Below are positions 2,808-25,589 of a DNA stretch of 64,000 nucleotides, piece after piece. The notes beneath the pieces were generated by a model that had not been told where the DNA came from, made no database searches, and saw nothing but the letters and a program-made list of their open reading frames with translations. The DNA comes from an uncultured bacterium. Its GTDB lineage: Bacteria > Armatimonadota > Hebobacteria > Hebobacterales > Hebobacteraceae. The stretch lies in NCBI GenBank assembly GCA_964385645.1, contig CAYLPT010000070.1:14538-78537 (forward strand), in the 5' to 3' direction. The position numbers and the translations under genes were made by a program. Position 1 is the stretch's first letter. The number at the start of each line of letters is the position of its first letter.

Positions 2808-3889
2808 GCGCCGCTTGGCCCCTGTCCGCGGTGGTGGGGCTCTTACTCTGCGTCCGCACGGCCGCCACCGCCGCCCCCGAGGAGGCCCCGGCCGAGCGCC
2901 GCGGCCTCCGTGTGGCTCGCACCCAGGTGGATGGGCGCCTCGACCTCCAACTGATGCACATGGATGCCGAAGGGCTCGAGCCACACGTGATGGCCGCCGA
3001 GGCCGAGATACTCATCACCGTCGCCTCGGCCGAGCGGGACGTCCTGGACATCGCGCTCCAGTGGCCCTACTACACCGACATGCGGGGCGTGGACGGCCGG
3101 GGACGGGAGATGCACTTCGGCAACGCTTACCTCGTCTACCGCACCGGCTTCGGACGGCCCAATCTCCGGCTGGGGCAGTTCGTCGTGCCCTTCGGCAACC
3201 TGACCCACTATGAGACCCACACCTTCCCCCTCCAGAGCCTGTACCCCGAGAGCCTCGGGCTGCGCATTGACCGCGGCGCCAGTCTAGAGGGATACGCCGG
3301 CGAGTGGGACTGGTGGCTCGCGCTCACCGGAGGCAATGGCCCCCGCGCCGACAACGACCGCCAGCCGATCATGGTCGCCCGGGCGGCCCGCACCCACCAG
3401 ACGGCCGGCGGCGCTCTCACGCTCGGCCTCTCCGGTCTGCTGGGCCGGCAGATGCCCCGCTTCTCGCCCCTCGTGGACCCTCTGATGGACCATGATGGAG
3501 GCGAGCATGGGGGCCACGCGCCAGCGCTGGAGTTCGCCAATAAGCGCCGGCTGGCGCTCGACCTGGAGTATGTCGCGGGGCTCGACCTGTGGCGCGGCGA
3601 GGTCGTTCTCGGGGAAGACGGCGACGGACCCGCCCGCGGTGGGTTCGCGCAGTGGGGCAGGGCCCTCGGGGAGGGGCGGGAGGTCACGCTTCAGGCGGCC
3701 GGGTGGCAGCAGCCCTCAGGTCGCCGAATGCGGCTCGGCGCCGCGTACGGGCTGGAGCTCGACCCCACCACGACGCTGCGGCTCGCGGCCGAGCGCCGCG
3801 CCGGCCGCACTGACACGGGGAGCGCAAGGGACACCGTCGTGTGGCTCCAGGTGTTGCGGGAGCTGCCCGCGCTGGCTCCTGCGCGCTGA
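2804..3889 (+). CDS. Secreted β-barrel outer-membrane protein, porin-like (possibly phosphate-selective porin O/P-like)
   Basis: ATG at 2804 overlaps the upstream stop (ATGA); signal peptide MSAAWPLSAVVGLLLCVRTAATAAP; alternating amphipathic β-strand pattern and aromatic-rich segments (FGNAYLVYRTGFGRPNLRLGQFVVPFG). The longer track ORF 2288..3889 is an upstream-extension artefact. Confidence 0.55.
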   Translation: MSAAWPLSAVVGLLLCVRTAATAAPEEAPAERRGLRVARTQVDGRLDLQLMHMDAEGLEPHVMAAEAEILITVASAERDVLDIALQWPYYTDMRGVDGRGREMHFGNAYLVYRTGFGRPNLRLGQFVVPFGNLTHYETHTFPLQSLYPESLGLRIDRGASLEGYAGEWDWWLALTGGNGPRADNDRQPIMVARAARTHQTAGGALTLGLSGLLGRQMPRFSPLVDPLMDHDGGEHGGHAPALEFANKRRLALDLEYVAGLDLWRGEVVLGEDGDGPARGGFAQWGRALGEGREVTLQAAGWQQPSGRRMRLGAAYGLELDPTTTLRLAAERRAGRTDTGSARDTVVWLQVLRELPALAPAR

Positions 3890-3918
3890 CCGGCCGGCGG
3901 GCGCCCACCAGCGGCGGG

Positions 3919-3947
3919 TTGACGCCCGCGCCGCGACTGGCTATCAT
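3919..3947 (+). promoter_or_regulatory. Near-consensus σ70-type promoter TTGACG-N17-TATCAT
   Basis: ttgacg (3919-3924), 17-nt spacer, tatcat (3942-3947); about 65 nt upstream of a small ORF with a GGGAGG RBS; conspicuous in a 70% GC background. Confidence 0.4.
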
Positions 3948-4012
3948 GCCTACCGGGATCAGGGCCCCCGGCCGGCGGCCCCGACGGAGGCAGCTTCAGG
4001 GAGGCGGATGAA

Positions 4013-4261
4013 ATGTCGGCGACAGAGCGGAAGGTCGCCATCGTGCTGGCGGTCCTGCTGGCACTGGTGGTTGTGGCGTATGTGACGGCCGGAGGAGGCC
4101 TGCGCGCGGGGACGGCGGCCGGCGAGGTCTCTCCTGCGGGCCACGTGCACGGCCCCGGGTGCACGCACGACCACGCGGCCCCAGCAGCCAGCGAGCCGGG
4201 CTGCGAGGACGAGCACGGAAGCGATGTCCTCGCCCCCTACCTCCAGCCGGAGGGCCGCTAG
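4013..4261 (+). CDS. Small single-pass membrane protein with His/Cys-rich tail (possible metal-binding protein)
   Basis: RBS AGGGAGGCGG 8 nt upstream of ATG; one TM helix (VAIVLAVLLALVVVAYV) then HVHGPGCTHDH...GCEDEHGSD; consensus promoter upstream. Confidence 0.45.
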   Translation: MSATERKVAIVLAVLLALVVVAYVTAGGGLRAGTAAGEVSPAGHVHGPGCTHDHAAPAASEPGCEDEHGSDVLAPYLQPEGR

Positions 4262-4415
4262 CGCCGGCCGCGGCAGCCCGGCCCGGGAGCCTTCGCCCAC
4301 ACGCCCTCCTGCTTGGCCCCGGCGGCGATCGTGGCCGCTGACCACGGGGAGTTCCACGGTCCGATCCCCGGCATGTTGGACCTGCCCCGCGCTCTCCCCC
4401 TCGCGGTCATGCGGC

Positions 4416-5417
4416 TCAACTGGAGCTCGGCCTACGCGTTCCACCGGGGCTACCGCGAGGCGGCCGGCACCGTGGCGGGAGGGAGCACACCGCCAGCAAC
4501 AGGTCGCCGGTGAGCAGGGAGACCGGCAGGCGCTGGAGCGATGATTCGATGTGGAGGCCGAGGCGCCCCAGCCGCCGGAGGGGGAGCTGTCGGCCGATGC
4601 CCTTCAGCCTGTGGAGCCGGAAGTGCGCGCCCAGCAGGGCCCTGATCTCGGGGGCGGTGAAGTTGTAGTAGTAGATGGCGTCACCCCAGTGGTAGCCTTG
4701 TTTGGCGCAGTCGGGCCGGCGGAGAAGATGGCGGAGGCGCTTGCGCAGGGAGTGGTTGTAGGCGGACACGCAGCAGCGGCCGCCGGGCTTCAGCACCCGG
4801 GCCAGCTCGGCCACTGCCCGCCTCTGCTGCCCATCATGGGGCAGGTGCTGGAGCACCTGGGAGCTCAGGGCGCGGTCGAAGGCGCGCGCAAGGAAGGGCA
4901 TGTGGCACACGTCCGCCTGGGCCAGGTGAAGGTTCGCCCCCAGGTGCGCGCAGCGCTCGCGGGCGGCGAGCAGGGAGTGAAAGGAGAAGTCCACCGCCAC
5001 CACCTCTCGGCACCGGGGGGCGTAGTGCTCGACCATGCGGCCGGTGCCGCAGCCCGCGTCGAGCACCCGGTCGGCCGCCCCAGGCTCGAGCGCGGCGAGC
5101 GTGGCGGGGATCTCAAGCGCGTCCTGGTATCCGGAGTCGCCCCACACCCAGGCCCGGCGGTCGCGGGTGCGCATCTCGCTGAGCTTGTCGCGCGCCACCC
5201 GGTCCCGGCGCGGGTGCTCTCTGGGCACTGGGCTGATGCTCTTGGGCAGCAGGACGGGGATCCCGTCGCGGATGGGGAACGCCCGGCCGCAGGCCGCGCA
5301 GGCCAGCTCGCCCGTGCCGACCTCCCCGTCGCCGAGACCGCCCGCCTCGGCCCTCAGCTCCAGGGGGTGAGAGCCGTCGTCTGGACAGCACAGCAGCCCG
5401 AGCAGACTCAGGTGCAT
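4416..5417 (-). CDS. Trm112-like zinc-ribbon domain fused to a class I SAM-dependent methyltransferase
   Basis: N-terminal LLCCPDDGSHPLEL...LACAACGRAFPIRDGIPVLL (Trm112p-like motif) followed by SAM-binding motif I VLDAGCGTGRM and motif post-I VVAVDFS. Confidence 0.75.
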   Translation of the reverse strand: MHLSLLGLLCCPDDGSHPLELRAEAGGLGDGEVGTGELACAACGRAFPIRDGIPVLLPKSISPVPREHPRRDRVARDKLSEMRTRDRRAWVWGDSGYQDALEIPATLAALEPGAADRVLDAGCGTGRMVEHYAPRCREVVAVDFSFHSLLAARERCAHLGANLHLAQADVCHMPFLARAFDRALSSQVLQHLPHDGQQRRAVAELARVLKPGGRCCVSAYNHSLRKRLRHLLRRPDCAKQGYHWGDAIYYYNFTAPEIRALLGAHFRLHRLKGIGRQLPLRRLGRLGLHIESSLQRLPVSLLTGDLLLAVCSLPPRCRPPRGSPGGTRRPSSS

Positions 5418-13973: not shown

Positions 13974-13995
13974 GGGCTTGCGGGCCCCTCACTCT
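13969..13995. terminator. Imperfect GC hairpin between convergent genes (TPR gene and trkA); possible bidirectional terminator
   Basis: tgagggc-ttgcgg-gcccctca stem-loop in the 15-nt gap between the two stop codons. Confidence 0.3.
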
Positions 13996-14633
13996 CCGAA
14001 TTGGCTGAGGCCAGGCTCGCGGCCGAAGACGATCAGGACATCGCCCTCGCGGATCACGCTCTCGCCGGAGGGCAGCGCCTCGTAGTGGTCGCCTGATTTG
14101 ATGAGCAGCACCTGGATGCCGTAGCGGCGGGGGAGCTGGAGGTCGCGCAGGGAGCGCTGCCACCACTCCGGGGGGGCGGTGACCTCCTCGATGCTGTAGT
14201 CGCCCTCGATGTTCATGTAGTCGAGCGTGCGCGCGGTGCGACCGATCATGTGGGCCAGGCGCTTGCCCATGTGGCGCTCGGGCAGGACGATCTGGTCGGC
14301 GCCGATGCGCTCGAGGATCTTGGCCTGCTGGTCGGTGAGGGCCTTCGAGATCACGTAGCGGGCGTTGAGCTCGCGCAGGTTGAGGGTGATGAGGACGCTC
14401 TCCTCCAGGTTGGAGCCGCGCCCCACGATGCAGATGTCGAAGGAGGGGATGTCGAGGGTGTGGAGCGCCTCGATGCTGGTCGCGTCCATCTCGATGGCGC
14501 GGGCGAGGTGGGGGGCGTTGCGCTGAACGACCTCCATGTCGGTGTCCACGCCCAGCACGTCGTGGCCGAGGCGCGCGAGCTCAAGCGCCAGGCTCTCGCC
14601 GAAGTACCCCAGGCCAATGACCAGGATGTTCAT
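13989..14633 (-). CDS. trkA: K+ uptake regulatory subunit TrkA/KtrA (TrkA-N Rossmann domain + TrkA-C domain)
   Basis: MNILVIGLGYFGESLALELARLGHDVLGVD (GxGxxG NAD-binding) and a C-terminal TrkA-C-like domain; adjacent to a TrkH gene. Confidence 0.88.
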   Translation of the reverse strand: MNILVIGLGYFGESLALELARLGHDVLGVDTDMEVVQRNAPHLARAIEMDATSIEALHTLDIPSFDICIVGRGSNLEESVLITLNLRELNARYVISKALTDQQAKILERIGADQIVLPERHMGKRLAHMIGRTARTLDYMNIEGDYSIEEVTAPPEWWQRSLRDLQLPRRYGIQVLLIKSGDHYEALPSGESVIREGDVLIVFGREPGLSQFGE

Positions 14634-14651
14634 GTCACCTCTCCCCCTGTC

Positions 14652-16094
14652 TCAGCCGGCCATCACGCCCTCCTCCGGCAGGCGCCGGAGGGCGGCGGCC
14701 CTGGGCCGGGCGAAGGTGAAGGCGAAGGCCAGCGGCCCTAGCCGGCCGAGGAACATCGAGAATATGATGAGCGCGCGCGACAGTGGTGTCAAGGTGGGGG
14801 TGATGCCGCCGCTGAGCCCGACCGTGCCGAAGGCGGAGATCACCTCGAACAGGAGGTAGTTGTAGCGCAGAGCGGTCTCCGGGGTGAGGGGGAGGCGGGG
14901 CAAGGTGACCTCGATCAGCCCCACCGCCAGGCCGATGAGGAGGACCGCCAGCAGGTAGACCGCGGTGAGGGAGAGGGCGAGCCGCGACATGTCGCCGCTG
15001 ACACGCCGGCCGAAGGCCTCGATATCGCTGCGCCTGCGCAGCAAAGCGAGGACGGCGAGGAAGATGATGGCAAGGGTGGTGATCTTGATGCCCCCGGCGG
15101 TGCTGCCGGGGGCGCCCCCGAAGATCATGAGCAGCGACAGCAGCAGGAGGGTAGGTGGCGCCACCTGGCTGAGGTCCACAGGGGAGAACCCCGCGGTCCG
15201 CGGCGTGACGCTCATGAACCAGGCGTTGGCGAGCTGTGTCCGCAGGTCTGGGAGGGCCCCGAGGGTGGCCGGGTTCTCGAGCTCGAAGAGCAGGAAGAGG
15301 CCCATGCCGCCGGCGAGGAGCACCGCGGTGACGCAGAGGACCAGCTTGGCGTGCAGGGTCAGCCTGCGCACCCGGGGGAGCACGAACAGCTCCGCAAGCA
15401 CGCCGAAGCCCAGCCCGCCGAGGATGATGAGGCCGCTGGTGGCGAGCAGCAGGAAGAGGTCGGTGCGGTACTCGGGCCGGGAGAAGCCCTCGAAGCCTGG
15501 GACGAGGTCGAAGCCGGCGTTGCAGAAGGCGGAGACGGAGTTAAAGATGCCGTGGAAGACGGCCTCGCCCCTGGGCAGATGGTGCTGGATGTGGAAGCGC
15601 CGCGCGAGGGCGACCGCTCCCATCCCCTCGATGAGGAAGGTGGCGATGGCGGCATAGCGGGCCATGCTGACGGCCGACCTGAGGCTCAGCGCGCCGTGCG
15701 ACTCCTGTAGCTGGAGGCGGGCCCGCAGCCCCACCCGCAAGCCCAGCATGGTGGCGATGATGGTCGCCAGGGTCATGTAGCCCAGCCCGCCCACCTGTAT
15801 GAGCACGAGGATGACGACCTGGCCGAAGCGGGTCCAGGCGTCGGCCGTGCTGACGGTGACCAGGCCGGTTACGCAGGCGGCCGAGGTGGCGGTGAAGAGG
15901 CAGTCCAGCAGGCCGACCCTCTCGCCAGGTTGCTGGGAGATGGGCAGCGACAGCAGCGCGGTGCCCACCCCGATCAGCACCAGGAAGCTCAGCGCCACCG
16001 CCTGGATGGGGGAGAGCCGCCGCAGGAGCGCCCGGGCCAGCGAGACAGGCCGGAGCGGGCCGGACATGGATGAAGTGATCGGGACGCTGCGCAC
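14652..16094 (-). CDS. trkH: TrkH/KtrB-family K+ transporter membrane subunit
   Basis: 480-aa polytopic protein with repeated selectivity-filter-like Gly motifs (GLGYMT, GFDLV, GTVGLSGG); adjacent to trkA. Confidence 0.88.
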   Translation of the reverse strand: MRSVPITSSMSGPLRPVSLARALLRRLSPIQAVALSFLVLIGVGTALLSLPISQQPGERVGLLDCLFTATSAACVTGLVTVSTADAWTRFGQVVILVLIQVGGLGYMTLATIIATMLGLRVGLRARLQLQESHGALSLRSAVSMARYAAIATFLIEGMGAVALARRFHIQHHLPRGEAVFHGIFNSVSAFCNAGFDLVPGFEGFSRPEYRTDLFLLLATSGLIILGGLGFGVLAELFVLPRVRRLTLHAKLVLCVTAVLLAGGMGLFLLFELENPATLGALPDLRTQLANAWFMSVTPRTAGFSPVDLSQVAPPTLLLLSLLMIFGGAPGSTAGGIKITTLAIIFLAVLALLRRRSDIEAFGRRVSGDMSRLALSLTAVYLLAVLLIGLAVGLIEVTLPRLPLTPETALRYNYLLFEVISAFGTVGLSGGITPTLTPLSRALIIFSMFLGRLGPLAFAFTFARPRAAALRRLPEEGVMAG

Positions 16095-16243
16095 AGTATG
16101 GCCCTGGGCCGGGATTATACGCCTGGGCCAGGCGGTTGTAAAGCGAGGGACCGCGGCCGGTTGACGAAGCCCCGGGCCGCCTCTATAATCGGGGCGTGAA
16201 CCATCGCCCGGGCTGCTAGGAAGACTGCCCGGCGAGGAGCGGT

Positions 16244-16597
16244 ATGGCTAGTCGCACGCCGGCAGGGCGTCGCAGCTGGCGGCTCGCCCTGTTGCTGATG
16301 GCGCCGTGGGTGGCGCTGACGCTCGGCCTGGGCGGGCGGCACAACCACGCGCCGCTCGCAGGGCTCGCGCGGTGCGGCGAGACGCCGTGCCAGCTCGCCT
16401 CCGCTTCCTCTGGCTCTTGTGACAGGGCCTCGATCTGCTCGGCCTGTCTCTGGCACGCCGCCTCTGTGGGGGCGGCGGCGGCGCCGCCGGTGATCGCCAC
16501 ACCGGCGGCCGGAGAGAAGCCCCTGACCTGTGCGGGTGAGGCGCTCCCGCCGGAGCTTGCCGCGCCCGCGCGCTCGCGCGCCCCTCCCTCCTCCTGA
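16244..16597 (+). CDS. Small secreted Cys-rich protein (hypothetical; DUF2946-like position upstream of a metal-uptake operon)
   Basis: Signal-like LALLLMAPWVALTLGLGG followed by six Cys (CGETPCQ, CDRASICSAC, C-terminal C); very GC-rich, so coding status is uncertain. Confidence 0.25.
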   Translation: MASRTPAGRRSWRLALLLMAPWVALTLGLGGRHNHAPLAGLARCGETPCQLASASSGSCDRASICSACLWHAASVGAAAAPPVIATPAAGEKPLTCAGEALPPELAAPARSRAPPSS

Positions 16598-16622
16598 GCC
16601 GCGCTACACGCTACGACGTTGC

Positions 16623-16637
16623 CCTGCCCAGGGCAGG
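16623..16637. promoter_or_regulatory. 15-bp perfect palindrome cctgccc-a-gggcagg upstream of the His-rich protein / znu operon; candidate operator or RNA hairpin
   Basis: Exact 7-bp inverted repeat with 1-nt spacer, 60 nt upstream of the 16697 start codon. Confidence 0.3.
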
Positions 16638-16696
16638 CCGGCGCGGCCCTGCGCTGATCCGGCCATCACCCCCATCCCTGAAACGCTCGGGAGGCT

Positions 16697-17971
16697 ATGG
16701 TGCGTCTTGCACACTTGCGCTGGTTCGTCCCTGTGCTCTTGACGGTGCTGTGTCTGCTCAGCGGCGCGGCCTGGGCCGCGGACGAGGAGGTGCTGCGGGA
16801 GGAGCTTGAGGAGCTGCGAAGCCGGCTCTTCGCCATCCAGCAGCGCATCACCGAGCTCGAGGAGAGCCTGGAGGAGCCCGAGCCGTCGCCGGTAAGTCCC
16901 GCGGCGGCCCGGGAGATGCTGCTGCCGGACATCAGCGTCATCGGCAACGTGGTGGGCCTGGCCAGCAGCGACAAGCGCCGGCCGGGCCGCAACGAGGTGC
17001 TGCTGCGGGAGCTGGAGATCGGGCTGCAGGGCTACCTGTACCCGCAGGTCCGCGCGGACGCCTTCATCGCGCTATCCGAGATGCACGACTACAAGGCCGA
17101 GCTTGAGGAGGGTTACATCAGCTTCCTCGAGCTCAACAGCGTGCCCATCCTCAGGGGCGCGCCGGATGGGCTGAGCCTGCGCCTGGGCCGCAAGCTGCTC
17201 GACTTCGGCCGAGTCAACCCCATCCATCCCCACCATTGGGACTTCGCGAACCCGCCCGTGGTGGTGCACAACCTGCTGGGCGACCATGCGCTGATCGGCG
17301 ATGGCGCGCAGCTCGACTACCTGCTGCCCATCCCCCAGTTCGCGAACCTCCAGGTGGGAGTGTGGCGGGCTCCGCACCACCACGACCACGATGATGACGA
17401 ACACAGCGTCCATCTCGGCGCCGGCTTCGAGGATCGCCTATACACTGCCCGCCTGTGGACCTCCCGCCCGGTGGGTCCGGATGCCGAGCTGGAGCTGGGC
17501 GCGAGCGGCGCCTGGGGCCGCGGCGAGGCCGCCCTCACCCACGACCATGAGGAGGCTCACGAGGACGACGACGCCGAGGATCATGGGCGGGACCGCATCC
17601 GCCTCCACTGCCTCGACGTGACCTACCGGCGCTGGCCCGGCGGCTACCGCCGGCTGCTCCTGCGGGGCGAGGCGCTGTGGCACCGGCGGAGCAACGGCGA
17701 GGGCGACACCCGCCTCGGACACTACCTGTTCGCCAACTACCGCTGGGACCAGTACCTCGACGCCGGGCTGCTCTACAGCGCCAGCCAACGGCCATGGCCG
17801 GCCGAGGGCCGCGACGCGGCGCTATCAGCTATCGTGACCAACCGGCTGACCGAGACCACCGCGCTCCGCCTTCAGCTCGACCGGGCGCGGCGCCACGAGA
17901 CCGGCCGCGCCACCGAGCTGTGGCTCCAGGTGATCTGGGGCATAGGCCCCCACAGCCATCCCTTGGAGTGA
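16697..17971 (+). CDS. Secreted His-rich protein (N-terminal coiled coil, β-rich C-terminal part; possible metal-scavenging outer-membrane protein)
   Basis: Signal peptide MVRLAHLRWFVPVLLTVLCLLSGAAWA; coiled-coil EEVLREELEELRSRLFAIQQRITELEESLEE; His/Asp clusters HHHDHDDDEHSVH and HDHEEAHEDDDAEDHGRD; directly upstream of znuABC-like genes. Confidence 0.7.
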   Translation: MVRLAHLRWFVPVLLTVLCLLSGAAWAADEEVLREELEELRSRLFAIQQRITELEESLEEPEPSPVSPAAAREMLLPDISVIGNVVGLASSDKRRPGRNEVLLRELEIGLQGYLYPQVRADAFIALSEMHDYKAELEEGYISFLELNSVPILRGAPDGLSLRLGRKLLDFGRVNPIHPHHWDFANPPVVVHNLLGDHALIGDGAQLDYLLPIPQFANLQVGVWRAPHHHDHDDDEHSVHLGAGFEDRLYTARLWTSRPVGPDAELELGASGAWGRGEAALTHDHEEAHEDDDAEDHGRDRIRLHCLDVTYRRWPGGYRRLLLRGEALWHRRSNGEGDTRLGHYLFANYRWDQYLDAGLLYSASQRPWPAEGRDAALSAIVTNRLTETTALRLQLDRARRHETGRATELWLQVIWGIGPHSHPLE

Positions 17972-18002
17972 GCGGTTGCGCGGGAACTGAGGAGGAACGC
18001 CG

Positions 18003-18926
18003 ATGAAGACATCGTCTCTCACTATCGCGATGCTCATATCCGGCCTCGCCCTTGGGCTTGCCACCCCCCCGGCCGAGGCCCGGGTGACCGTCGTTGCCAC
18101 CACCCAGAACCTGGCCGCCATCGCCCGCGAGGTGGCGGGCGACCGCGCCGAGGTGATCGGCCTGGCCCCGGGCGACCAGGACCCGCACATGGTGGAGCCG
18201 CGGCCGAGTTGGGTGATGCACCTGCGGAGGGCGGACGTGCTGGTCCGCATGGGGATGGATCTTGACCTGTGGATTCAGGGCCTGGTGGACGCCTCCCGCA
18301 ACCGCCGCATCGCCCGCGGCGCGTCCGGCGATGTGGACGCCTCCGTGGGCATCCGCAAGCTGGAGGTGCCCACCGAGAGACTCGACCCCTCCATGGGCCA
18401 TATCCACGTCTACGGCAACCCCCACTACGACCTCGACCCCCGCAACGGCAAGGTTATCGCCCGGCGCATCATGGAGGCCCTGAGCCGGGCCGACCCGGCC
18501 GGCGCGCAGGTCTACCAGGCGAACTTCGAGGACTTCTCCCGCCGGCTAGACCAAGCGGTCGCCCGCTGGCAGGCCCAGCTAAGGCCGCACCGGGGCGCGG
18601 ACGTCGTTGTGTACCACAAGTCGTGGGCCTACTTCTTCGACTGCTTCGGCCTGCGGCAGTTCGCCGAGGTCGAGCCCAAGCCCGGCGTCCCTCCCTCCCC
18701 GGCCCACGCGCACGCGCTGATCCGGCGGATGAAGGATGCCGGCGTGGGGCTGATCCTGATGGAGTCCTACTACCCGAGGCGGTTCCCCCAGATGATCGCC
18801 CGCGAGACCGGCGCGCGGCTGCTGGAGGTTCCCGTCTCGGTGCGCGGGCGCCGCGGGATCGAGACCTACTTCGATCTCTTCGACCACCTGGTGATGAGCG
18901 TGGCCCGGGCGCTGGGGGAGGCCTGA
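18003..18926 (+). CDS. znuA: Metal ABC transporter periplasmic substrate-binding protein (ZnuA/TroA-like, cluster A-I)
   Basis: Signal peptide, then VVATTQNLAAIAREVAGDRAEV, VMHLRRADVLVRMG, YHKSWAYFFDCFGL and SPAHAHALIRRMKDAGVGLILMESYY, the typical ZnuA/MntC/TroA fold motifs. Confidence 0.85.
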   Translation: MKTSSLTIAMLISGLALGLATPPAEARVTVVATTQNLAAIAREVAGDRAEVIGLAPGDQDPHMVEPRPSWVMHLRRADVLVRMGMDLDLWIQGLVDASRNRRIARGASGDVDASVGIRKLEVPTERLDPSMGHIHVYGNPHYDLDPRNGKVIARRIMEALSRADPAGAQVYQANFEDFSRRLDQAVARWQAQLRPHRGADVVVYHKSWAYFFDCFGLRQFAEVEPKPGVPPSPAHAHALIRRMKDAGVGLILMESYYPRRFPQMIARETGARLLEVPVSVRGRRGIETYFDLFDHLVMSVARALGEA

Positions 18927-19702
18927 TGTCGGGCGGTTCGCCGGGGAGCGAGAGGATGGCCGAGGGGCTGATCGAGTTCCGCGAGGTGAGCCTGGGCTAT
19001 GGCCGCCGGACGGTGCTGTCGGGGATGAGCTTCACGATCGCGCGGGGGGACTTCATCGGCATCGTGGGGCCCAATGGCGCCGGCAAGACCACGCTGCTGA
19101 GGGCGGTGCTGGGGGTGCTGGCCCCGCAGTCAGGGGAGGTAGTCGTGCATGCGCCGCCGGAGGGGCTGCGCTTCGGCTACGTGCCGCAGCGCCAGGAGGT
19201 GGACGAGTCCTTCCCCCTCACCGCCCTAGAGGTCGTTGCGATGGGCCGCTTCGGTCTGCTCGGCCCCTGGCGCAAGCCCGGGCGCGCCGACCGGGAGCAG
19301 GCCCTGGTGTGCCTGGAGCACGTGGGCCTGGCGCACCTAGCGGAGCAGCGCTACCGGGAGCTCTCGGGGGGCCAGAAGCAGCGGGTGCTCATCGCCCGCG
19401 CGCTGGCGGGCGAGCCCTCCGTGCTGGTGCTCGACGAGCCCACCAACGACATGGACCTCACCAGCGAACGGGCGGTGATCGAGCTGATCTGCCACCTCCA
19501 CGGCGCCCACGGCATGACCACCCTGGTCGCCAGCCATCTCCTCAACGTGGTGGCGAGCTGTGCTCGCAAGGTGGCCTTCGTGGACGACATGGACTTCGCC
19601 ATCCGCCCCGTGGAGGAGGCGCTCACCGCCGAGAACCTGAGCCGGCTCTACGGCGTGCCGGTGCAGGTCGCCGAGCTGGGCGGGCGCCGGGTGGTGGTGT
19701 AG
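18926..19702 (+). CDS. znuC: Metal ABC transporter ATP-binding protein (ZnuC-like)
   Basis: ATG overlaps the znuA stop (TGATG); Walker A GPNGAGKTTLL, signature LSGGQKQRVLIARAL, Walker B VLVLDEPTNDMD. The track ORF 18269..19702 is an upstream extension. Confidence 0.88.
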   Translation: MSGGSPGSERMAEGLIEFREVSLGYGRRTVLSGMSFTIARGDFIGIVGPNGAGKTTLLRAVLGVLAPQSGEVVVHAPPEGLRFGYVPQRQEVDESFPLTALEVVAMGRFGLLGPWRKPGRADREQALVCLEHVGLAHLAEQRYRELSGGQKQRVLIARALAGEPSVLVLDEPTNDMDLTSERAVIELICHLHGAHGMTTLVASHLLNVVASCARKVAFVDDMDFAIRPVEEALTAENLSRLYGVPVQVAELGGRRVVV

Positions 19703-19715
19703 GGAGGCGGGTTGG

Positions 19716-20543
19716 ATGATCGAGATCTTCCAGATACCCTTCATGCAGCAGGCGCTTCTCGCCAGCCTGCTGGCCGGCGTCACCTGCGCGTTCCTCGCAG
19801 TGTTCGTGGTGCTCAAGCGCGTCGTCTTCGTCGGCATCGCGCTGGCGCAGTTGTCGTCGGCCGGGGTGGCGTTGGCCCTGCTGCTGGGGCTGACGGCCGG
19901 CTGGCACCTGACCCTGTCATCGCTGGTGTTCATGCTCGCCGGGGTGGCGCTGTTCTCCGCGCCGCTCGGGGGGCGGCAGCTCCCCCGGGAGGCCATCATC
20001 GGCATCGCCTACGCGGTGGCCTCGGCGCTCGGGATCCTGCTGGTCGCGCGCAGCGCCGCGGGCGAGTCGCACATGCTGTATTTGCTCTTCGGCAACATCC
20101 TCGCGGTGACGCCGCTGGACAACTGGCTCATGGGCGGGGTGTTCGCGGCGGTGGCGCTGATCCACTACCTGTTCCACAAGGAGTTCGTCCTCGTCTCCTT
20201 CGACCCGGAGACCGCCGACACGCTGGGGGTGAGGAGCCGCCGTTGGGAGCTGCTGTTCTACCTGACCCTGGGGGTCACCATCGCCATCGCCCTGCGGGTG
20301 CTGGGGGCGCTGCTGGTGTTCTCGTTCCTGGTGATCCCGGGGGTGATCGGGCTGCTGGTCGCGCCCCGGCTGCGGGGCGCTTTCGTGGGCGCGGCGCTGG
20401 CCGCCGTCGTCTCGGCAGCCGCCGGGCTCTACCTGTCTTTTGCGCTGGACCTGCCCACGGCCGCCACCATCGTGCTGCTGGCCTTCGCGCTGCTCTGCTT
20501 CAGCGGCCTGTGGGCGCGCTTTGTGGCCCGGCGCGGGGACTGA
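19716..20543 (+). CDS. znuB: Metal ABC transporter permease (ZnuB-like)
   Basis: MIEIFQIPFMQQALLASLLAGVTCAFLAVFVVLKRVVFVG, characteristic ZnuB/MntB/TroC N-terminus; 8-9 TM helices. Confidence 0.88.
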   Translation: MIEIFQIPFMQQALLASLLAGVTCAFLAVFVVLKRVVFVGIALAQLSSAGVALALLLGLTAGWHLTLSSLVFMLAGVALFSAPLGGRQLPREAIIGIAYAVASALGILLVARSAAGESHMLYLLFGNILAVTPLDNWLMGGVFAAVALIHYLFHKEFVLVSFDPETADTLGVRSRRWELLFYLTLGVTIAIALRVLGALLVFSFLVIPGVIGLLVAPRLRGAFVGAALAAVVSAAAGLYLSFALDLPTAATIVLLAFALLCFSGLWARFVARRGD

Positions 20544-21765: not shown

Positions 21766-23769
21766 ATGCGGCAGCTGAGCCCCAGGGAGGGACAACCAGC
21801 GCCTGAGCGGCGGCCGGCGGCGGGGGAGGTGACGGCGCCGGTCATCGTCGCCGCGGTCGTGCTGTTGCTCCTCCTCGGGGTGGTCGGCTTCTGGGTGGAC
21901 GTGTACGAGCGGGCGGCGGTCCGCTTCGGCGCGGGCGTGCCGGCCTCCGGCCCCTTCGCCCTGTTGTTCCTGTTGGCGGCCGCGGCGGCGCTGTGGCCCG
22001 CGGGGAGCCGGTTCGGGCTGACCCGGCGGCAGGCGCTCGCCATCTACATGGTCGTGCTCGTAGGCGCGCCGGTGGTCTCCTACAAGGTGATGGAGAGCGT
22101 GCTCGTTCACGCCACCATCCAACGCTACCTCGGCATGACCACCAACCTGCTCTGGCAGGACACGTTCCTGCCGGTGATCCCCAACTGGCTGGCCCCCGAA
22201 GACTGGACGGCCGTCGAGGGCTTCTACCACGGACTGGGCGCGGTTCCGTGGTCGGTGTGGTGGACGCCGCTGGCGGTCTGGTGCTCGTTCATGATCGCGC
22301 TGGCGGTCTGCTCGGTCTGCCTCATGTTGCTGGTGCAGCGCCAGTGGATCTCCCACGAGCGCCTCACCTTCCCTCTCGCCCAGATCCCGCTGGAGATGGT
22401 GGCGGAGACCAGCCCCGAGCGCGGCGGGCCGCGGGCGCGGCTCACCACCGCCTCCCTATTCTGGGCGGGCCTGATCGTGTCGCTGGTGGTGAGCGCGCTG
22501 CACACCGTCGCGCGCTACGCGCCCGCCGTCCCCTCCATCCCCCTCGGGCCGGTGCGGGTGATGGAATACCATCCGGTGGGCCCGCGCGCCGGCCTGGACG
22601 AGATGAACCTCGTGTTCTTCCCGTGGCTCATCGCCATCGCTTACCTGATCCCGAAGGACCTCTCCTTCTCCTGCTGGTTCTTCTGGTTCGTCCGGCTCAG
22701 CCTGCACGTGGCGGCCATCGCGGGCGGCTGCGCGCCCCAGCGGCCGGCCTTCCACTGGGTCAGCGAGTTCCCCGCGCCCCTCTTCCAGGGCACCGGCGCG
22801 GTGCTGGCCATCTCCGGGCTGGCGCTGTGGTCGGCGCGCCGTCACCTGGGGCGCGCGGTGCGCATCGCGCTAAGCCGCGAGTCTGGCCGCGCGGACGCCG
22901 ATGAGCCGATCCCGTATCGCTGGAGCCTGCTCGCCCTCGCGCTCTCCTTCGCCTGGATGGTCTACATCTGCTGGCTGACCGGAAGCCGCCTCGTCGTGGG
23001 GGTCGCGCTTATCGCGTTCATGCTCATCTACTACACGACCTGGGTGCGTCTTCGCGCGGAGACGGGGCTGGGCTTCTTCCCCTATCCGCTGTTCGTCCAC
23101 CAGTCCATTGTGGTGCCCTTCGGCACCGCGGGCTTCACGCCGCAGGAGATGATGACCATCCACGCCGTACACTGGGCCTACCACGGCGGCGGCGACAGCT
23201 TCGAGATCGTCCCCGGCAACGCGCTCGAGTCCATGAAGATCGGGGATGCGGCCGGCATCAGGATGAGGTCGGTGCTTATCGGGATGGCGGTGGGGTTCGT
23301 CGCGGTGGTCATCCTGGGCGCCTATATCACGCTCACCGGCATCTACCACTACGGGTTCCTGAACACGGGCCCGCGTGCGGTGGAGCACGAGTTGAGGGTG
23401 TACAGCTGGAGCCTGCACAGCCACTTCACTGACCCCGCGGGGACCGACGTGCCAGGCGCCATCGCGATGGGGGCCGGCGCGCTGGTGACCGCGCTTCTGG
23501 GCGCGATGCGGCTGCGGTTCTGGTGGTGGCCCTTCCACCCGATCGGCTACCTCGCTGCGCATACGTGGATCATGTACATGTACTGGTCGCCCTTCATGAT
23601 TGGGTGGCTCGCGAAGACCCTCGTGGTCCGCTACGGCGGGCTGCGGCTCTACCGGCGGACGGTGCCGCTGGCGATAGGCGCCATCGCCGGGGACCTGGTC
23701 AACGAGGTACTCTGGGGAGCGGTGACCTTGATCACGGGCGTGCCCTTCCGGCCCAGCCAGCTCTGGTGA
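21766..23769 (+). CDS. Large polytopic integral membrane protein of unknown function (667 aa, at least 14 predicted TM helices, Trp/Tyr-rich)
   Basis: Long ORF with strong coding character and many hydrophobic helices; no recognisable catalytic motif; lies between an oxidoreductase gene and a CAZyme cluster. Confidence 0.7.
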   Translation: MRQLSPREGQPAPERRPAAGEVTAPVIVAAVVLLLLLGVVGFWVDVYERAAVRFGAGVPASGPFALLFLLAAAAALWPAGSRFGLTRRQALAIYMVVLVGAPVVSYKVMESVLVHATIQRYLGMTTNLLWQDTFLPVIPNWLAPEDWTAVEGFYHGLGAVPWSVWWTPLAVWCSFMIALAVCSVCLMLLVQRQWISHERLTFPLAQIPLEMVAETSPERGGPRARLTTASLFWAGLIVSLVVSALHTVARYAPAVPSIPLGPVRVMEYHPVGPRAGLDEMNLVFFPWLIAIAYLIPKDLSFSCWFFWFVRLSLHVAAIAGGCAPQRPAFHWVSEFPAPLFQGTGAVLAISGLALWSARRHLGRAVRIALSRESGRADADEPIPYRWSLLALALSFAWMVYICWLTGSRLVVGVALIAFMLIYYTTWVRLRAETGLGFFPYPLFVHQSIVVPFGTAGFTPQEMMTIHAVHWAYHGGGDSFEIVPGNALESMKIGDAAGIRMRSVLIGMAVGFVAVVILGAYITLTGIYHYGFLNTGPRAVEHELRVYSWSLHSHFTDPAGTDVPGAIAMGAGALVTALLGAMRLRFWWWPFHPIGYLAAHTWIMYMYWSPFMIGWLAKTLVVRYGGLRLYRRTVPLAIGAIAGDLVNEVLWGAVTLITGVPFRPSQLW

Positions 23770-23840: not shown

Positions 23841-25589
23841 CTACTCGGCCTTGCGGAGGCGGACGGCGATGGGGCGGCCCGCGGGGGGCCGGAGGGTGAA
23901 CTCTCCCGAGCGAGCGCCACTTAGCGGGGTGACCGTCATCTCCCAGGTGTCGAGCAGGTCAACGTGGTAAGTGTTGCCCGGGGGGGTGCGGAAGGTGTGC
24001 TCGCCATGGGCCTCCCGGCCGAAGTAGAAGAGCGCGTAGGCGTCGCCCTTAGCGGCCCCCGGGACCTCCCCGCCCCAGTCCACGGGGTCGAGGCCGCGGG
24101 GCGGGCCCTCCTCGATCATGCGCCTGAGGAAGGCGATCCGGGGCGGGCTCTGGCCGTGAAGGACGCCGCCCTTAGACCACCACAGGATGTCCTCGGGGTG
24201 CCGGTAGGTCTCGCCGTGGCCGACGTAGCAGCCGGCGACCGTCCCGACCCAGAAGCGGTGCACCATCTCCTGCGGTGATAGGTTACCCCAGCCCTGCTCG
24301 ATGTCGCCCTCGTAGACCACCTCGTCGAAGACGATCGGCTTACGGTACTGGTCCCTGAGCGGCTCCGCGCGGCCCGGCTCCTCGACGTGCCAGCCGCTCT
24401 GGACGCTGGCGTGGGTAACCCAGGGCTTGGTATGGTCGTACCAGACGCGGCCGTTGTGGATCGAGCGCAGGCGCCCGTATGGGTCGCTGTCGCGGACGAT
24501 CTGGAAGAAGCGGTCCCAGTCCTCCATGCGCTTGTTCCCGGGGCTCGCCGTGTCCTCGTCCGTGAAGCCAGGCATGAAGTCGAACTCGTTGGCGAGGGAC
24601 CACCACACATTGCGGTAGGCCGCCAGCCGCGCCACCACGTAGCGTAGGTACCGATCGTCGCTCTCCGAGTCCATCTTCGCGAAGCCCCAGCGGTCATAGG
24701 GGTGGAAGAGGATGATGTCGGCCTCGATGCCGAGGGCCATCAGCTCGCCGACACGCCGCTCGAGGTGACGGAAGAACTCGGGATTGAAGCGGGTGAAGTC
24801 CCAGCCGCCCCCCTCACCCCGCGCGAACGGATAGCGTGGCGGCTCGTTCTTGTTGTAGAGATAGTCCTTGGGGAAGACACACATGCGCAGCTTGTTGAAG
24901 GGAGCCGCGGCCAGCGTCTCCAGCGTCTGCGCCTCGAGCTCCTCCCCTTGGTGGATCCAGGCATAGCACGTGGTGCCCACCTGGTAGTAAGGCGTGCCGT
25001 CGGCGTAGGCGAAGTGATGGGTGTCGCGCACGCGCACCGGCCCGCGGTTGCCCCTGGAGGGGGGCACGCACTCGAACGAGCCGCGCCTGCCCGTCAGCTC
25101 CGGCCGGTTGCTCTGGGTCTCGTAGCTCCAGCGCCCGGGCGCGTCGGGCATGAAACGCACGCGGTAGGTCCCGCCGCCGTCGTAGAAGCCGGCGACCTCG
25201 ACCGCCTCGCCCCCGCGTGAGAAGCGCGCCGACAGCTCCACATCGAGGAACGGGTTGCCGTCGGCCGGCCCCTCCAGCGCCACCTCGAACACCCCCCACT
25301 GCTCGACGGCGCCAGCACCGCCCATGTCATCTCCTCCTGGGTGGTTCCTGCTCCCGACGGTGCTCGGAGTTCGACGCGGCCGCCGCGGGTCCTGTTCCGC
25401 CACTCCGGCGGCCCACGCTTCGTTCACAGTCGAGAAGGCGTCGGCGATAGACAGGGTTGTGTTCTCCCGCGGGAGCTCGACAGGGCTGGGACGCGCTCCG
25501 GCTGGAGGCGCGGCGGCCATGAGCCCGAACCCCAGCGCCCACAAAGCCGCGAGCACCTCGCGCTGGAAGCCAGTCGTTCCTCTGCCCAT
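23841..25589 (-). CDS. Secreted glycoside hydrolase, GH140-like (DUF5060 N-domain + DUF4038 catalytic domain)
   Basis: Signal peptide; DUF4038-type motifs ([17 protein letters not shown]..., [25 protein letters not shown]), the family that includes apiosidase GH140. Confidence 0.75.

Follow-up and report, generated by a model that had tools for sequence, protein, structure and literature searches.

We analysed a window of 64 kb and 70% GC from an uncultured bacterium of the Hebobacteraceae (Armatimonadota); by window we mean the whole stretch of DNA, positions 14,538 to 78,537 of contig CAYLPT010000070.1. On its plus strand five consecutive genes probably constitute a single metal-uptake operon under one promoter: a short leader open reading frame (ORF), the gene of a predicted outer-membrane porin and three genes coding for the binding protein, ATPase and permease of a ZnuABC-type importer. 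The leader product is built like CruR of Bordetella pertussis, a small upstream ORF (uORF) that controls the genes behind it in response to copper. We put at roughly 60% the probability that the leader is a CruR-like, metal-responsive arrest peptide controlling a dedicated porin plus ZnuABC importer, with Zn(II) as the most likely metal. The evidence comes from gene order and conservation, from the spacing of the leader motifs, from a fold prediction for the porin and from the complementarity between the end of the leader ORF and the ribosome-binding site (RBS) of the porin gene.

The only promoter-like site of the operon on the plus strand lies upstream of the leader ORF (sigma-70-like, TTGACG-17-TATAAT, 16161-16189, with 11 of 12 matches and none in 50 shuffles). 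Promoters read by eye also precede the leader in two related loci, L034 (TTGACG-17-TAGAAT) and L036 (TGcTATAAT). The leader ORF (16244-16597, 117 amino acids or aa) follows a Shine-Dalgarno (SD) sequence GAGGAG at 16234-16239. Behind it comes a spacer of 99 nt (53-299 nt in the relatives), in which we searched for promoter-like and terminator-like sites and found none, intrinsic terminators included. The porin gene (16697-17971) codes for 424 aa, or 423 aa if translated from the GTG at 16700. Its SD, GGGAGG at 16689-16694, is 2 nt before the ATG at 16697 and 5 nt before that GTG, and the JGI record of the protein (P0001) also calls the 423-aa form, so the real start is probably the GTG. After 31 nt there is a ZnuA-type substrate-binding protein (18003-18926, 307 aa, Pfam PF01297 at 6e-53), followed by a ZnuC/AztA-like ABC ATPase (18926-19702, 258 aa, PF00005 at 3.5e-30) and a ZnuB/AztB-like ABC-3 permease (19716-20543, 275 aa, PF00950 at 1e-47). 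The stop codon of znuA overlaps the start of znuC (TGATG, 18924-18928), which implies translational coupling. In the mechanical ORF list the znuC frame also carried a spurious ORF of 477 aa (18269-19702).

An earlier note, made from the letters alone, had described a small ORF with six cysteines ahead of a 424-aa gene that stands just 5' of znuA-, znuC- and znuB-like genes on the same strand, and this arrangement holds in all its parts. Of the six cysteines two, C65 and C68, are conserved in relatives. The GC content of the leader ORF at its three codon positions is 0.70, 0.73 and 0.85, the second being atypically high. We considered the possibility of an ORF created artificially by high GC and rejected it, because relatives with a lower GC content have homologous ORFs immediately 5' of the porin gene; for the same reason we take the leader for a genuine gene. 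The loci examined comprised three contexts retrieved by identity, three close relatives and 29 loci from GTDB genomes. A leader directly 5' of the porin gene is present in 24 of about 34 loci, with GC contents from 0.30 to 0.71, in Armatimonadota, Abditibacteriota, Nitrospirota, Elusimicrobiota, Verrucomicrobiota, Thermodesulfobacteriota and others. The 10 loci lacking it were also inspected for leaders with variant motifs and none appeared. A search with the leader profile retrieved 17 proteins only, the word index that was used being ill-suited to such short and divergent sequences.

What is conserved in the leaders is very little, and it is always the same. In an alignment of 22 of them mean identity is 21% and, besides M1, the invariant positions are only H33, C65, C68, R112, P114 and P115 (window numbering). 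All 24 leaders have an N-terminal hydrophobic segment (Kyte-Doolittle of at least 1.87 over 15 residues) after two or more Lys or Arg; in the window it covers residues 15-29 (16286-16330), scores 2.05 and follows four Arg. From 1 to 10 residues after this segment comes the invariant His, and the second residue after it is His or Cys in 21 of the 22 aligned leaders, giving H33-N34-H35 in the window (16340-16348) as candidate metal ligands. The CxxC motif (C65-S-A-C68, 16436-16447) is invariant and a candidate for metal sensing. Two codons before the stop, the leader ends in R112-A-P-P115 (16577-16588), with R[AGS]PP found in 24 of 24 leaders at 1-9 residues from the stop, mostly 2. The distance from the CxxC to this motif is 42-46 residues in every leader (mode 43, and 43 in the window), and that from the His to the CxxC varies between 11 and 58. 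In several relatives a second hydrophobic segment follows the CxxC. Taken together these features make it probable that the leader ORF is a regulatory element of the operon.

The same layout is known from Bp2923/CruR (DUF2946, PF11162), which heads the cruR-bfrG-bp2921 operon of B. pertussis and consists of a signal peptide, a CXXC and, 45 residues later and 3 residues from the C terminus, a RAPP motif (Roy et al. 2022, PMC9426467). Mutating the RAPP led to loss of downstream expression and mutating the CXXC to loss of copper control; five extra residues in the spacer impaired control, and the signal peptide was dispensable (PMC9426467). In the model of Roy et al., copper bound to nascent CruR relieves the RAPP arrest and Rho-dependent termination ensues (PMC9426467). 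The same authors report more than 2,000 DUF2946 homologues, overwhelmingly at the head of copper-related operons, and state that no riboswitch for Cu or Zn is known and that CruR is the first transition-metal-responsive uORF (PMC9426467). Like CruR, the window leader is the first gene of a metal-uptake operon with an outer-membrane transporter next. Both peptides begin with an export signal, contain an invariant CXXC and carry RAPP 2-3 residues short of the C-terminal end. The distance between the two motifs is fixed in both (45 residues in CruR, 43 in the window, 42-46 in the leader family), little of the remaining sequence is conserved, and a long, structured and C-rich spacer separates both from the next gene. 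The family differs from CruR by its additional invariant His (H-x-H/C) after the hydrophobic segment, by its hosts, which belong to phyla (Armatimonadota and others) outside those reported, and by what lies downstream, a porin with a ZnuABC-type importer instead of a TonB-dependent transporter, PepSY_TM and copper chaperones. In the Pfam scan 4 of 22 leaders matched DUF2946. Only that of locus L028 exceeded the gathering score (24.5 vs 23.7 bits), with an alignment that extends from the His/CxxC region as far as the model's C-terminal end, and those of L006 (19.0 bits) and L014 (16.7 bits) stayed below it. Since so few leaders match DUF2946, the family is best described as a divergent, zinc-operon-associated CruR-like branch.

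The way in which RAPP stalls the ribosome has been established structurally (Morici 2024, PMC10951233). Proteomes avoid RAPP and RGPP, but small exported proteins are enriched in them at their C-terminal ends; uORFs of this type are over-represented ahead of metal-related genes, and they precede genes for a TonB receptor, PCuAC, YcnI, PepSY, a "carbohydrate porin" and a "zinc-regulated TonB-dependent receptor" (Fujiwara 2025, PMC12992588). In the portion of the text and supplementary tables of that study available to us, no ZnuA-type or zinc ABC genes follow RAPP/RGPP uORFs (PMC12992588), presumably because the porin described here is annotated only as "hypothetical". One of those tables lists a RAPP uORF before the "carbohydrate porin" that reads AAHGVVHPY...CDLC, 43 residues, RAPPVLV (PMC12992588); it shares with the window leader the His, the CxxC, the 43-residue spacing and the RAPP. 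Pairs of a leader and a porin may thus be a theme wider than this porin family. Our search of the open-access literature found no description of a zinc-linked RAPP or CruR-type uORF.

Other peptides with a C-terminal R-A/G-P-P near the stop, namely ApdA, ApdP, ApcA and SecM (Sakiyama 2021; Morici 2024; Fujiwara 2024, 2025), are also small exported or membrane proteins encoded 5' of the gene that they regulate. They monitor Sec or YidC activity and, unlike the window leader, have no conserved metal ligands. Since most characterised RAPP-type arrest peptides monitor protein localisation, and every leader has a hydrophobic segment of N-in type, we considered a monitor of the SecM, MifM or VemP kind, whose arrest would be released by the pull of export or insertion and would report secretion capacity rather than metal. 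This seems very improbable to us: what lies downstream is a porin gene with those of a metal ABC importer and no Sec or YidC component, the signal peptide of CruR is dispensable for regulation, and there would be no explanation for an invariant His and a CxxC at fixed spacing.

Another possibility is that the leader is a stable small protein of the membrane or periplasm, a metallochaperone or a thiol-disulfide partner of the porin or ZnuA, with the RAPP as an interaction or degradation tag. The export or membrane segment would suit such a protein, as would the second hydrophobic segment of several relatives; the conserved His and CxxC are potential ligands for periplasmic metal, and CutF, which is related to CruR, was once proposed as a copper chaperone (Roy et al., PMC9426467). 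We consider this improbable, if slightly less so than a Sec or YidC monitor. Against it speak the mean identity given above, with only six invariant residues, and the constant distance between the CxxC and the C-terminal motif in a sequence that otherwise varies freely. Ordinary proteins strongly avoid RAPP/RGPP, which is enriched where regulatory uORFs end, and CruR itself is apparently short-lived and regulatory (PMC9426467). In addition, the stall-site codons complement the RBS of the next gene in a locus-specific manner, as follows.

In the predicted free messenger RNA of the window (minimum free energy and centroid structures), the strand at 16576-16599 pairs with the region of the porin RBS (16685-16705, with the SD at 16689-16694 and both start codons), which would be sequestered. 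A helix of 10 base pairs joins 16590-16599 (CCUCCUGAGC, made up of the final two codons, the stop codon and 2 nt beyond it) to 16685-16694 (GCUCGGGAGG), which holds the porin SD, and another of 7 base pairs joins 16576-16582 (codons of R112 and A113) to 16699-16705 around the GTG start. The strand complementary to the SD is located at +7 to +16 from the P-site codon, that is, inside the footprint of an arrested ribosome, and the probability that the SD pairs with positions +0 to +21 is 1.00. The equivalent helix in L036 has 13 perfect base pairs and its fold a z of -4.3. Among the 21 loci with an assignable porin start, used for the comparisons of pairing and opening energy, the SD pairs with +0 to +21 at a probability of at least 0.67 in 12 and with -6 to -13 in 3 more.

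Because proline codons (CCN) complement GGAGG by themselves, we compared cognate with non-cognate combinations of stall zone and RBS. Cognate duplexes had a mean of -16.5 kcal/mol and non-cognate ones of -12.9 kcal/mol; the cognate combination ranked first in 7 of 21 loci, and in 20,000 permutations the cognate mean was never attained (p<5e-5), indicating pairing that is specific to each locus. When the stall footprint was masked, the energy needed to open the RBS fell from 11.8 to 7.5 kcal/mol across the 21 loci (in the window from 16.4 to 10.7 kcal/mol), with a relief of 2 kcal/mol or more in 14; a control footprint placed 45 nt upstream gave 0.0 relief (Wilcoxon p = 8e-5). In SecM-secA, the stalled ribosome exposes the downstream SD. 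A SecM-like translational control is what the complementarity suggests here, whereas CruR has been shown to act via Rho-dependent termination. The stretch from the RAPP to the porin start is richer in C than in G in nearly all loci (0.46 vs 0.28 in the window), which by analogy with CruR would be compatible with a Rho-utilisation site, and both SD sequestration and Rho coupling may operate.

Within the same spacer lies the 15-bp palindrome CCTGCCCAGGGCAGG (16623-16637, a 7-1-7 inverted repeat). The earlier note had correctly placed it about 60 nt upstream of the porin gene (59 nt before the ATG at 16697) and had proposed it as a Zur-type operator. It is a perfect inverted repeat, zinc operons are commonly regulated by Zur, and some of the relatives' loci contain Fur-family genes, so that transcriptional control of the operon from this site could be imagined. 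Perfect palindromes of the form 7-N(0-3)-7 are as common in the window as expected by chance (43 observed, 43.5 ± 7 in Markov-1 simulations). The window holds no second exact copy of the sequence, and near matches with up to 3 mismatches number 16, for 12.2 ± 4 expected. It sits 430 nt beyond the sole promoter-like site, inside the transcribed leader-porin spacer, where the folded RNA makes of it a local GC hairpin in the loop closed by the helix between the RBS and its complement. L034 and L036 do not keep the sequence at the corresponding position, its high GC content contrasts with the AT-rich boxes listed for Zur in Caulobacter, and a motif scan of the ORFs of the window revealed no Fur or Zur gene. 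The Zur-operator reading is left unsupported by this chance frequency, the single copy and a position in transcribed RNA far from the promoter, and we regard it as extremely unlikely. An Rfam scan of 15900-18100 at E <= 1 gave no match, so there is no known riboswitch or leader RNA in that region either.

The link of the leader and the porin to metal import comes from synteny. In every informative locus the porin gene is followed after 10-290 nt by a ZnuA homologue in the same orientation, and ZnuC and ZnuB genes usually come next; the only locus without it is on a contig that breaks off 180 nt past the porin. These loci are distributed over some eight phyla (Armatimonadota, Abditibacteriota, Omnitrophota, Nitrospira, Elusimicrobia/Endomicrobia, Verrucomicrobiota, Thermodesulfobacteriota and Fidelibacterota). 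Those of Abditibacteriota include the cultured Abditibacterium utsteinense LMG 29911, whose copy lacks the leader, and strain IAD-21. The best PDB matches of the window ZnuA-type protein were the ZnuA of Pseudomonas aeruginosa and of Synechocystis. Its H62, H141 and H205 align with the histidines of DPH, DPH and FHPSWAYF in the latter, which we take to be the zinc ligands in the 1PQ4 structure, and all three are invariant in 34 syntenic substrate-binding proteins. In cluster A-I binding proteins a His at the third position, instead of the Glu of Mn/Fe binders, marks a zinc binder. The window importer thus shares with the ZnuABC and AztABC systems of this cluster the Pfam ZnuA, ABC_tran and ABC-3 domains and the three-His site; it differs from them in that its binding protein has no long His-rich loop, that no AztD-like chaperone accompanies it, and that it scores below all their equivalog cut-offs.

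Whether a leader is present is related to the presence of another type of regulator. Fur-family genes were found in 6 of the 10 leader-less loci (L019, 4337-4732; L025, 8830-9207; L026, 4131-4508; L027, 7368-7745; L031, 5549-5989; L033, 4366-4758) and in 1 of the 24 leader-bearing ones (L006, 5133-5579), a difference with a Fisher p of about 5e-4 to 1e-3. This distribution suggests that the operon has two alternative controls, the leader and a repressor of the Fur family. In L034, the closest relative that is not identical (its porin is 58% identical), an ArsR/SmtB-family metalloregulator, a 42-aa ORF and a DUF364 protein are encoded directly 5' of the leader (3188-4435); the ArsR/SmtB-family gene may add a further metal-responsive layer there.

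As to the metal, we favour Zn(II) as the one most likely sensed and imported, on account of the three-His binding protein, the extra His of the leader, a porin rich in His and acidic residues, the lack of copper partners and the substitution by Fur-family genes, all of them features read from the sequences. The alternative is that copper or another thiophilic metal is sensed by the same CruR-like arrest and imported by the porin and ABC system. Besides the copper operons headed by CruR and its DUF2946 homologues, what would favour it is that CXXC is a recognised Cu(I) motif, that the L028 leader passes the DUF2946 threshold and that the ABC components fail to reach any zinc equivalog cut-off. 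We consider it unlikely, given the invariant ZnuA-type site and the ZnuA proteins that are its best matches. The H-x-H/C together with the CxxC would form a set of four His/Cys ligands, which is typical of Zn(II) rather than Cu(I); no PCuAC, ScoI, YcnI, CopC or PepSY_TM was present among the called genes of the loci; and the regulators that replace the leader are of the Fur family, not of the CueR or CsoR types.

The product of the second gene of the operon is predicted with confidence to be a porin barrel of 16 strands, preceded by a coiled coil at the N terminus. The AlphaFold2 model (monomer, from an alignment of 48 sequences) has a pLDDT of 88.2 and a pTM of 0.78, and contains a signal helix, a helix at residues 30-57, a disordered linker at 61-74 and, by DSSP, 16 beta-strands between 78 and 416, mostly with pLDDT above 90. 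The signal-like N terminus and the coiled-coil segment described in the earlier note are therefore both found, and the question that it raised, beta-barrel or not, is answered by the model in favour of a barrel. Foldseek comparison with the PDB returned outer-membrane porins only (E 5e-10 to 1e-7, TM-score 0.5-0.68, about 10% identity), among them VhChiP, OmpM1, OmpT, PhoE (TM 0.68 on the target), OprP and DcaP. Searches of Pfam, NCBIfam and PDB sequences with the single sequence and with the 48-sequence profile gave coiled-coil noise only; the Pfam porin families Porin_1, Porin_4, Porin_O_P, OprB and BBP2 did not match the window protein, and distant relatives had sub-threshold matches to Porin_O_P, Porin_4 or BBP2 at most. 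Of the three functions offered in the earlier note, that of a novel porin agrees with the barrel, the exclusive porin-fold matches and the strict synteny with ZnuA. A zincophore receptor in the TonB-dependent sense is contradicted by the 16 strands rather than 22 and by the missing plug (neither Plug nor TonB_dep_Rec matched, and the N terminus is the coiled coil), and a periplasmic metallochaperone does not fit.

The known 16-stranded trimeric porins (PhoE/OmpF, OprP, VhChiP, DcaP, OmpM1) share the predicted barrel and its long loop from strand 5 to strand 6, and DcaP (6eus) and OmpM1 (8bys) also a periplasmic coiled coil before it, with which trimerisation of the window porin would be compatible. 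Apart from the very low identity, the window porin differs from them by having no SLH domain, by ending in GPHxHxLE rather than in a terminal aromatic residue, by its invariant His and acidic residues and by being always encoded with ZnuA. ZnuD-type TonB-dependent zinc receptors have a 22-strand barrel, a plug and a TonB box, which it lacks. TonB-independent channels implicated in the entry of divalent metals and co-regulated with an inner-membrane importer are known elsewhere. The MnoP channel of Bradyrhizobium, for Mn2+, is reportedly co-regulated with MntH. In the parts of the respective articles available to us, MspD of M. smegmatis is presented as a porin in zinc homeostasis (PMC13098993) and RopAe of Rhizobium etli as a route of copper transit (PMC6011978). 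All three resemble the window porin in these respects, and differ from it in being unrelated in sequence as far as tested, encoded outside znuABC operons and devoid of an arrest-peptide leader.

From the sequence comparisons, the porin is a member of a large unannotated family. A word-indexed search gave 140 relatives from Armatimonadota, Fidelibacterota, Omnitrophota, Eisenbacteria and others, all labelled "hypothetical", and an exhaustive profile search of 1.84 billion cluster representatives gave 3,739 at E < 1e-3 and 639 at E < 1e-30. No description of the family was found in the open-access literature. One relative, P0023, has a precomputed match to Pfam PF27954 that was absent from its matches in our own Pfam scan; this recent entry may already cover part of the family or its coiled coil.

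Across the 48 aligned members the LPDIS motif at the start of the barrel is invariant, as are E107, E138, E266, D307, E325, E386, R391 and four histidines, H177, H179, H419 and H421. The last two belong to a conserved C-terminal tail, GxGPHxHxLE (GPHSHPLE in the window). H177 and H179 are found in a 32-residue loop between strands 5 and 6 (residues 168-199, 17198-17293, pLDDT 93-98) that includes a short helix, carries the likewise invariant F170, G171 and N174 and occupies the position of the classical constriction loop L3. We infer the constriction and the residues facing the lumen from this position and from strand parity in the model. The two His/Asp clusters that had first drawn attention to the protein are real (PHHHDHDDDEHSVH at about 226-239 and HDHEEAHEDDDAEDHGRD at about 282-299). 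They correspond to the low-pLDDT loops L4 (strands 7/8, residues 226-244, 17372-17428) and L5 (strands 9/10, residues 277-298, 17525-17590, with His, Asp and Glu), which would be surface loops if the usual porin topology applies. At least two His are present in L4 of 22 of the 48 members and in L5 of 15, by which comparison the His-rich loops are a subfamily trait.

It could be, then, that the barrel is a general porin, or one of different selectivity (for instance for a small organic zincophore), which merely travels with ZnuABC and has incidental low-complexity His clusters. The members devoid of His in L4 or L5 and the fold matches, to general and substrate-specific porins alike and at low identity, would be in line with this. 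Against it stand the strict adjacency to ZnuA across about eight phyla, the four invariant His and six invariant acidic residues in all the aligned porins, and a metal-type leader or Fur-family regulator common to porin and importer. We think it rather unlikely, although it is the least improbable of the alternatives discussed here, and a dedicated porin the better interpretation.

Several points weigh against a zinc-responsive arrest leader controlling a dedicated porin and ZnuABC importer. Stalling is deduced from the RAPP motif, which needs a suitable upstream context, and the window leader has no match to Pfam DUF2946 even at E <= 10. Since the CruR homologues are overwhelmingly linked to copper, the metal sensed could be Cu. 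The NCBIfam equivalog cut-offs were missed by AztC (118 vs 350), ZnuA (63 vs 268), AztB (122 vs 280) and AztA (188 vs 220), and the Fur-family proteins of L006 and L031 are not assignable to Zur, Fur or PerR. Roughly half of the porin family has acidic L4/L5 loops without His. As for the RNA, the complementarity of proline codons to the SD inflates the pairing and the cross-locus control removes this bias only in part; masking the footprint gave less than 1 kcal/mol of relief in 6 of 21 loci; and the window SD is still largely paired with alternative partners under the mask (probability of being unpaired 0.12).

With these reservations, the operon might work as follows. The single promoter at 16161-16189 would drive leader, porin, znuA, znuC and znuB. 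In the free messenger, the codons around and after the stall site would pair with the SD and start of the porin gene and keep it closed. A ribosome arrested on the leader, its P-site tRNA carrying R112-A113-P114 and its A site occupied by Pro115-tRNA, would cover the complementary strand and free the porin RBS, and might also shield the C-rich spacer from Rho, as in CruR. Metal bound to the exposed His33 (and His35) and Cys65-x-x-Cys68 would fold or tension the nascent chain; these ligands are held at some 43 residues from the peptidyl-transferase centre, about one length of the exit tunnel. Under this tension the arrest would be released and the RNA helix would form again, shutting off the uptake genes, so that the operon would be expressed under metal scarcity and silent under metal repletion. 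Possibly the Zn(II) sensed is that of the periplasm, as a chain of 43 residues could reach through both the exit tunnel and the SecYEG channel. The imported Zn(II) would cross the outer membrane through a trimer-type 16-strand porin with an acidic lumen, along the invariant His of the loop at the L3 position and the C-terminal tail, helped in this lineage by the His/Asp-rich surface loops, and the three-His ZnuA would pass it on to ZnuBC.

The surroundings of the operon are of a different nature. Upstream, on the opposite strand, are trkH and trkA for potassium uptake (13989-16094), towards which a divergent strong sigma-70-like promoter is directed (TTTACA-17-TATAAT, 16114-16142, minus strand, 11 of 12 matches and none in the shuffles); both this site and the one facing the leader are contained in a divergent intergenic region of 600 bp. 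On the 3' side there is a GFO/IDH/MocA oxidoreductase, according to the gene calls of locus L038, together with a 667-aa polytopic membrane protein (21766-23769, plus strand) and a 582-aa protein (23841-25589, minus strand). The latter resembles, by eye, a DUF5060/apiosidase-like gene near the porin locus in L002.

How Zn(II) passes the outer membrane without TonB-dependent receptors is poorly understood, and a family of porins that is always found before ZnuA and keeps four His and a set of acidic residues invariant provides a concrete candidate, present in at least one cultured strain (A. utsteinense LMG 29911). We would tentatively go as far as to propose, at less than even odds, that the leader is the first zinc-responsive nascent-peptide sensor and that it gates an unrecognised and widespread family of Zn(II)-selective porins, which would be the TonB-independent outer-membrane step for ZnuABC in deep-branching diderm phyla. 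If true, this zinc-linked branch would extend the sensing of metals by nascent peptides from copper to zinc, and its constant 43-residue ruler in otherwise free sequence would be a clean system in which to study the force-based release of RAPP arrest. A function would also be gained for thousands of "hypothetical proteins", as represented by the clusters recovered with the porin profile, and for the small ORFs upstream of such porins, which in high-GC genomes are usually missed or dismissed.

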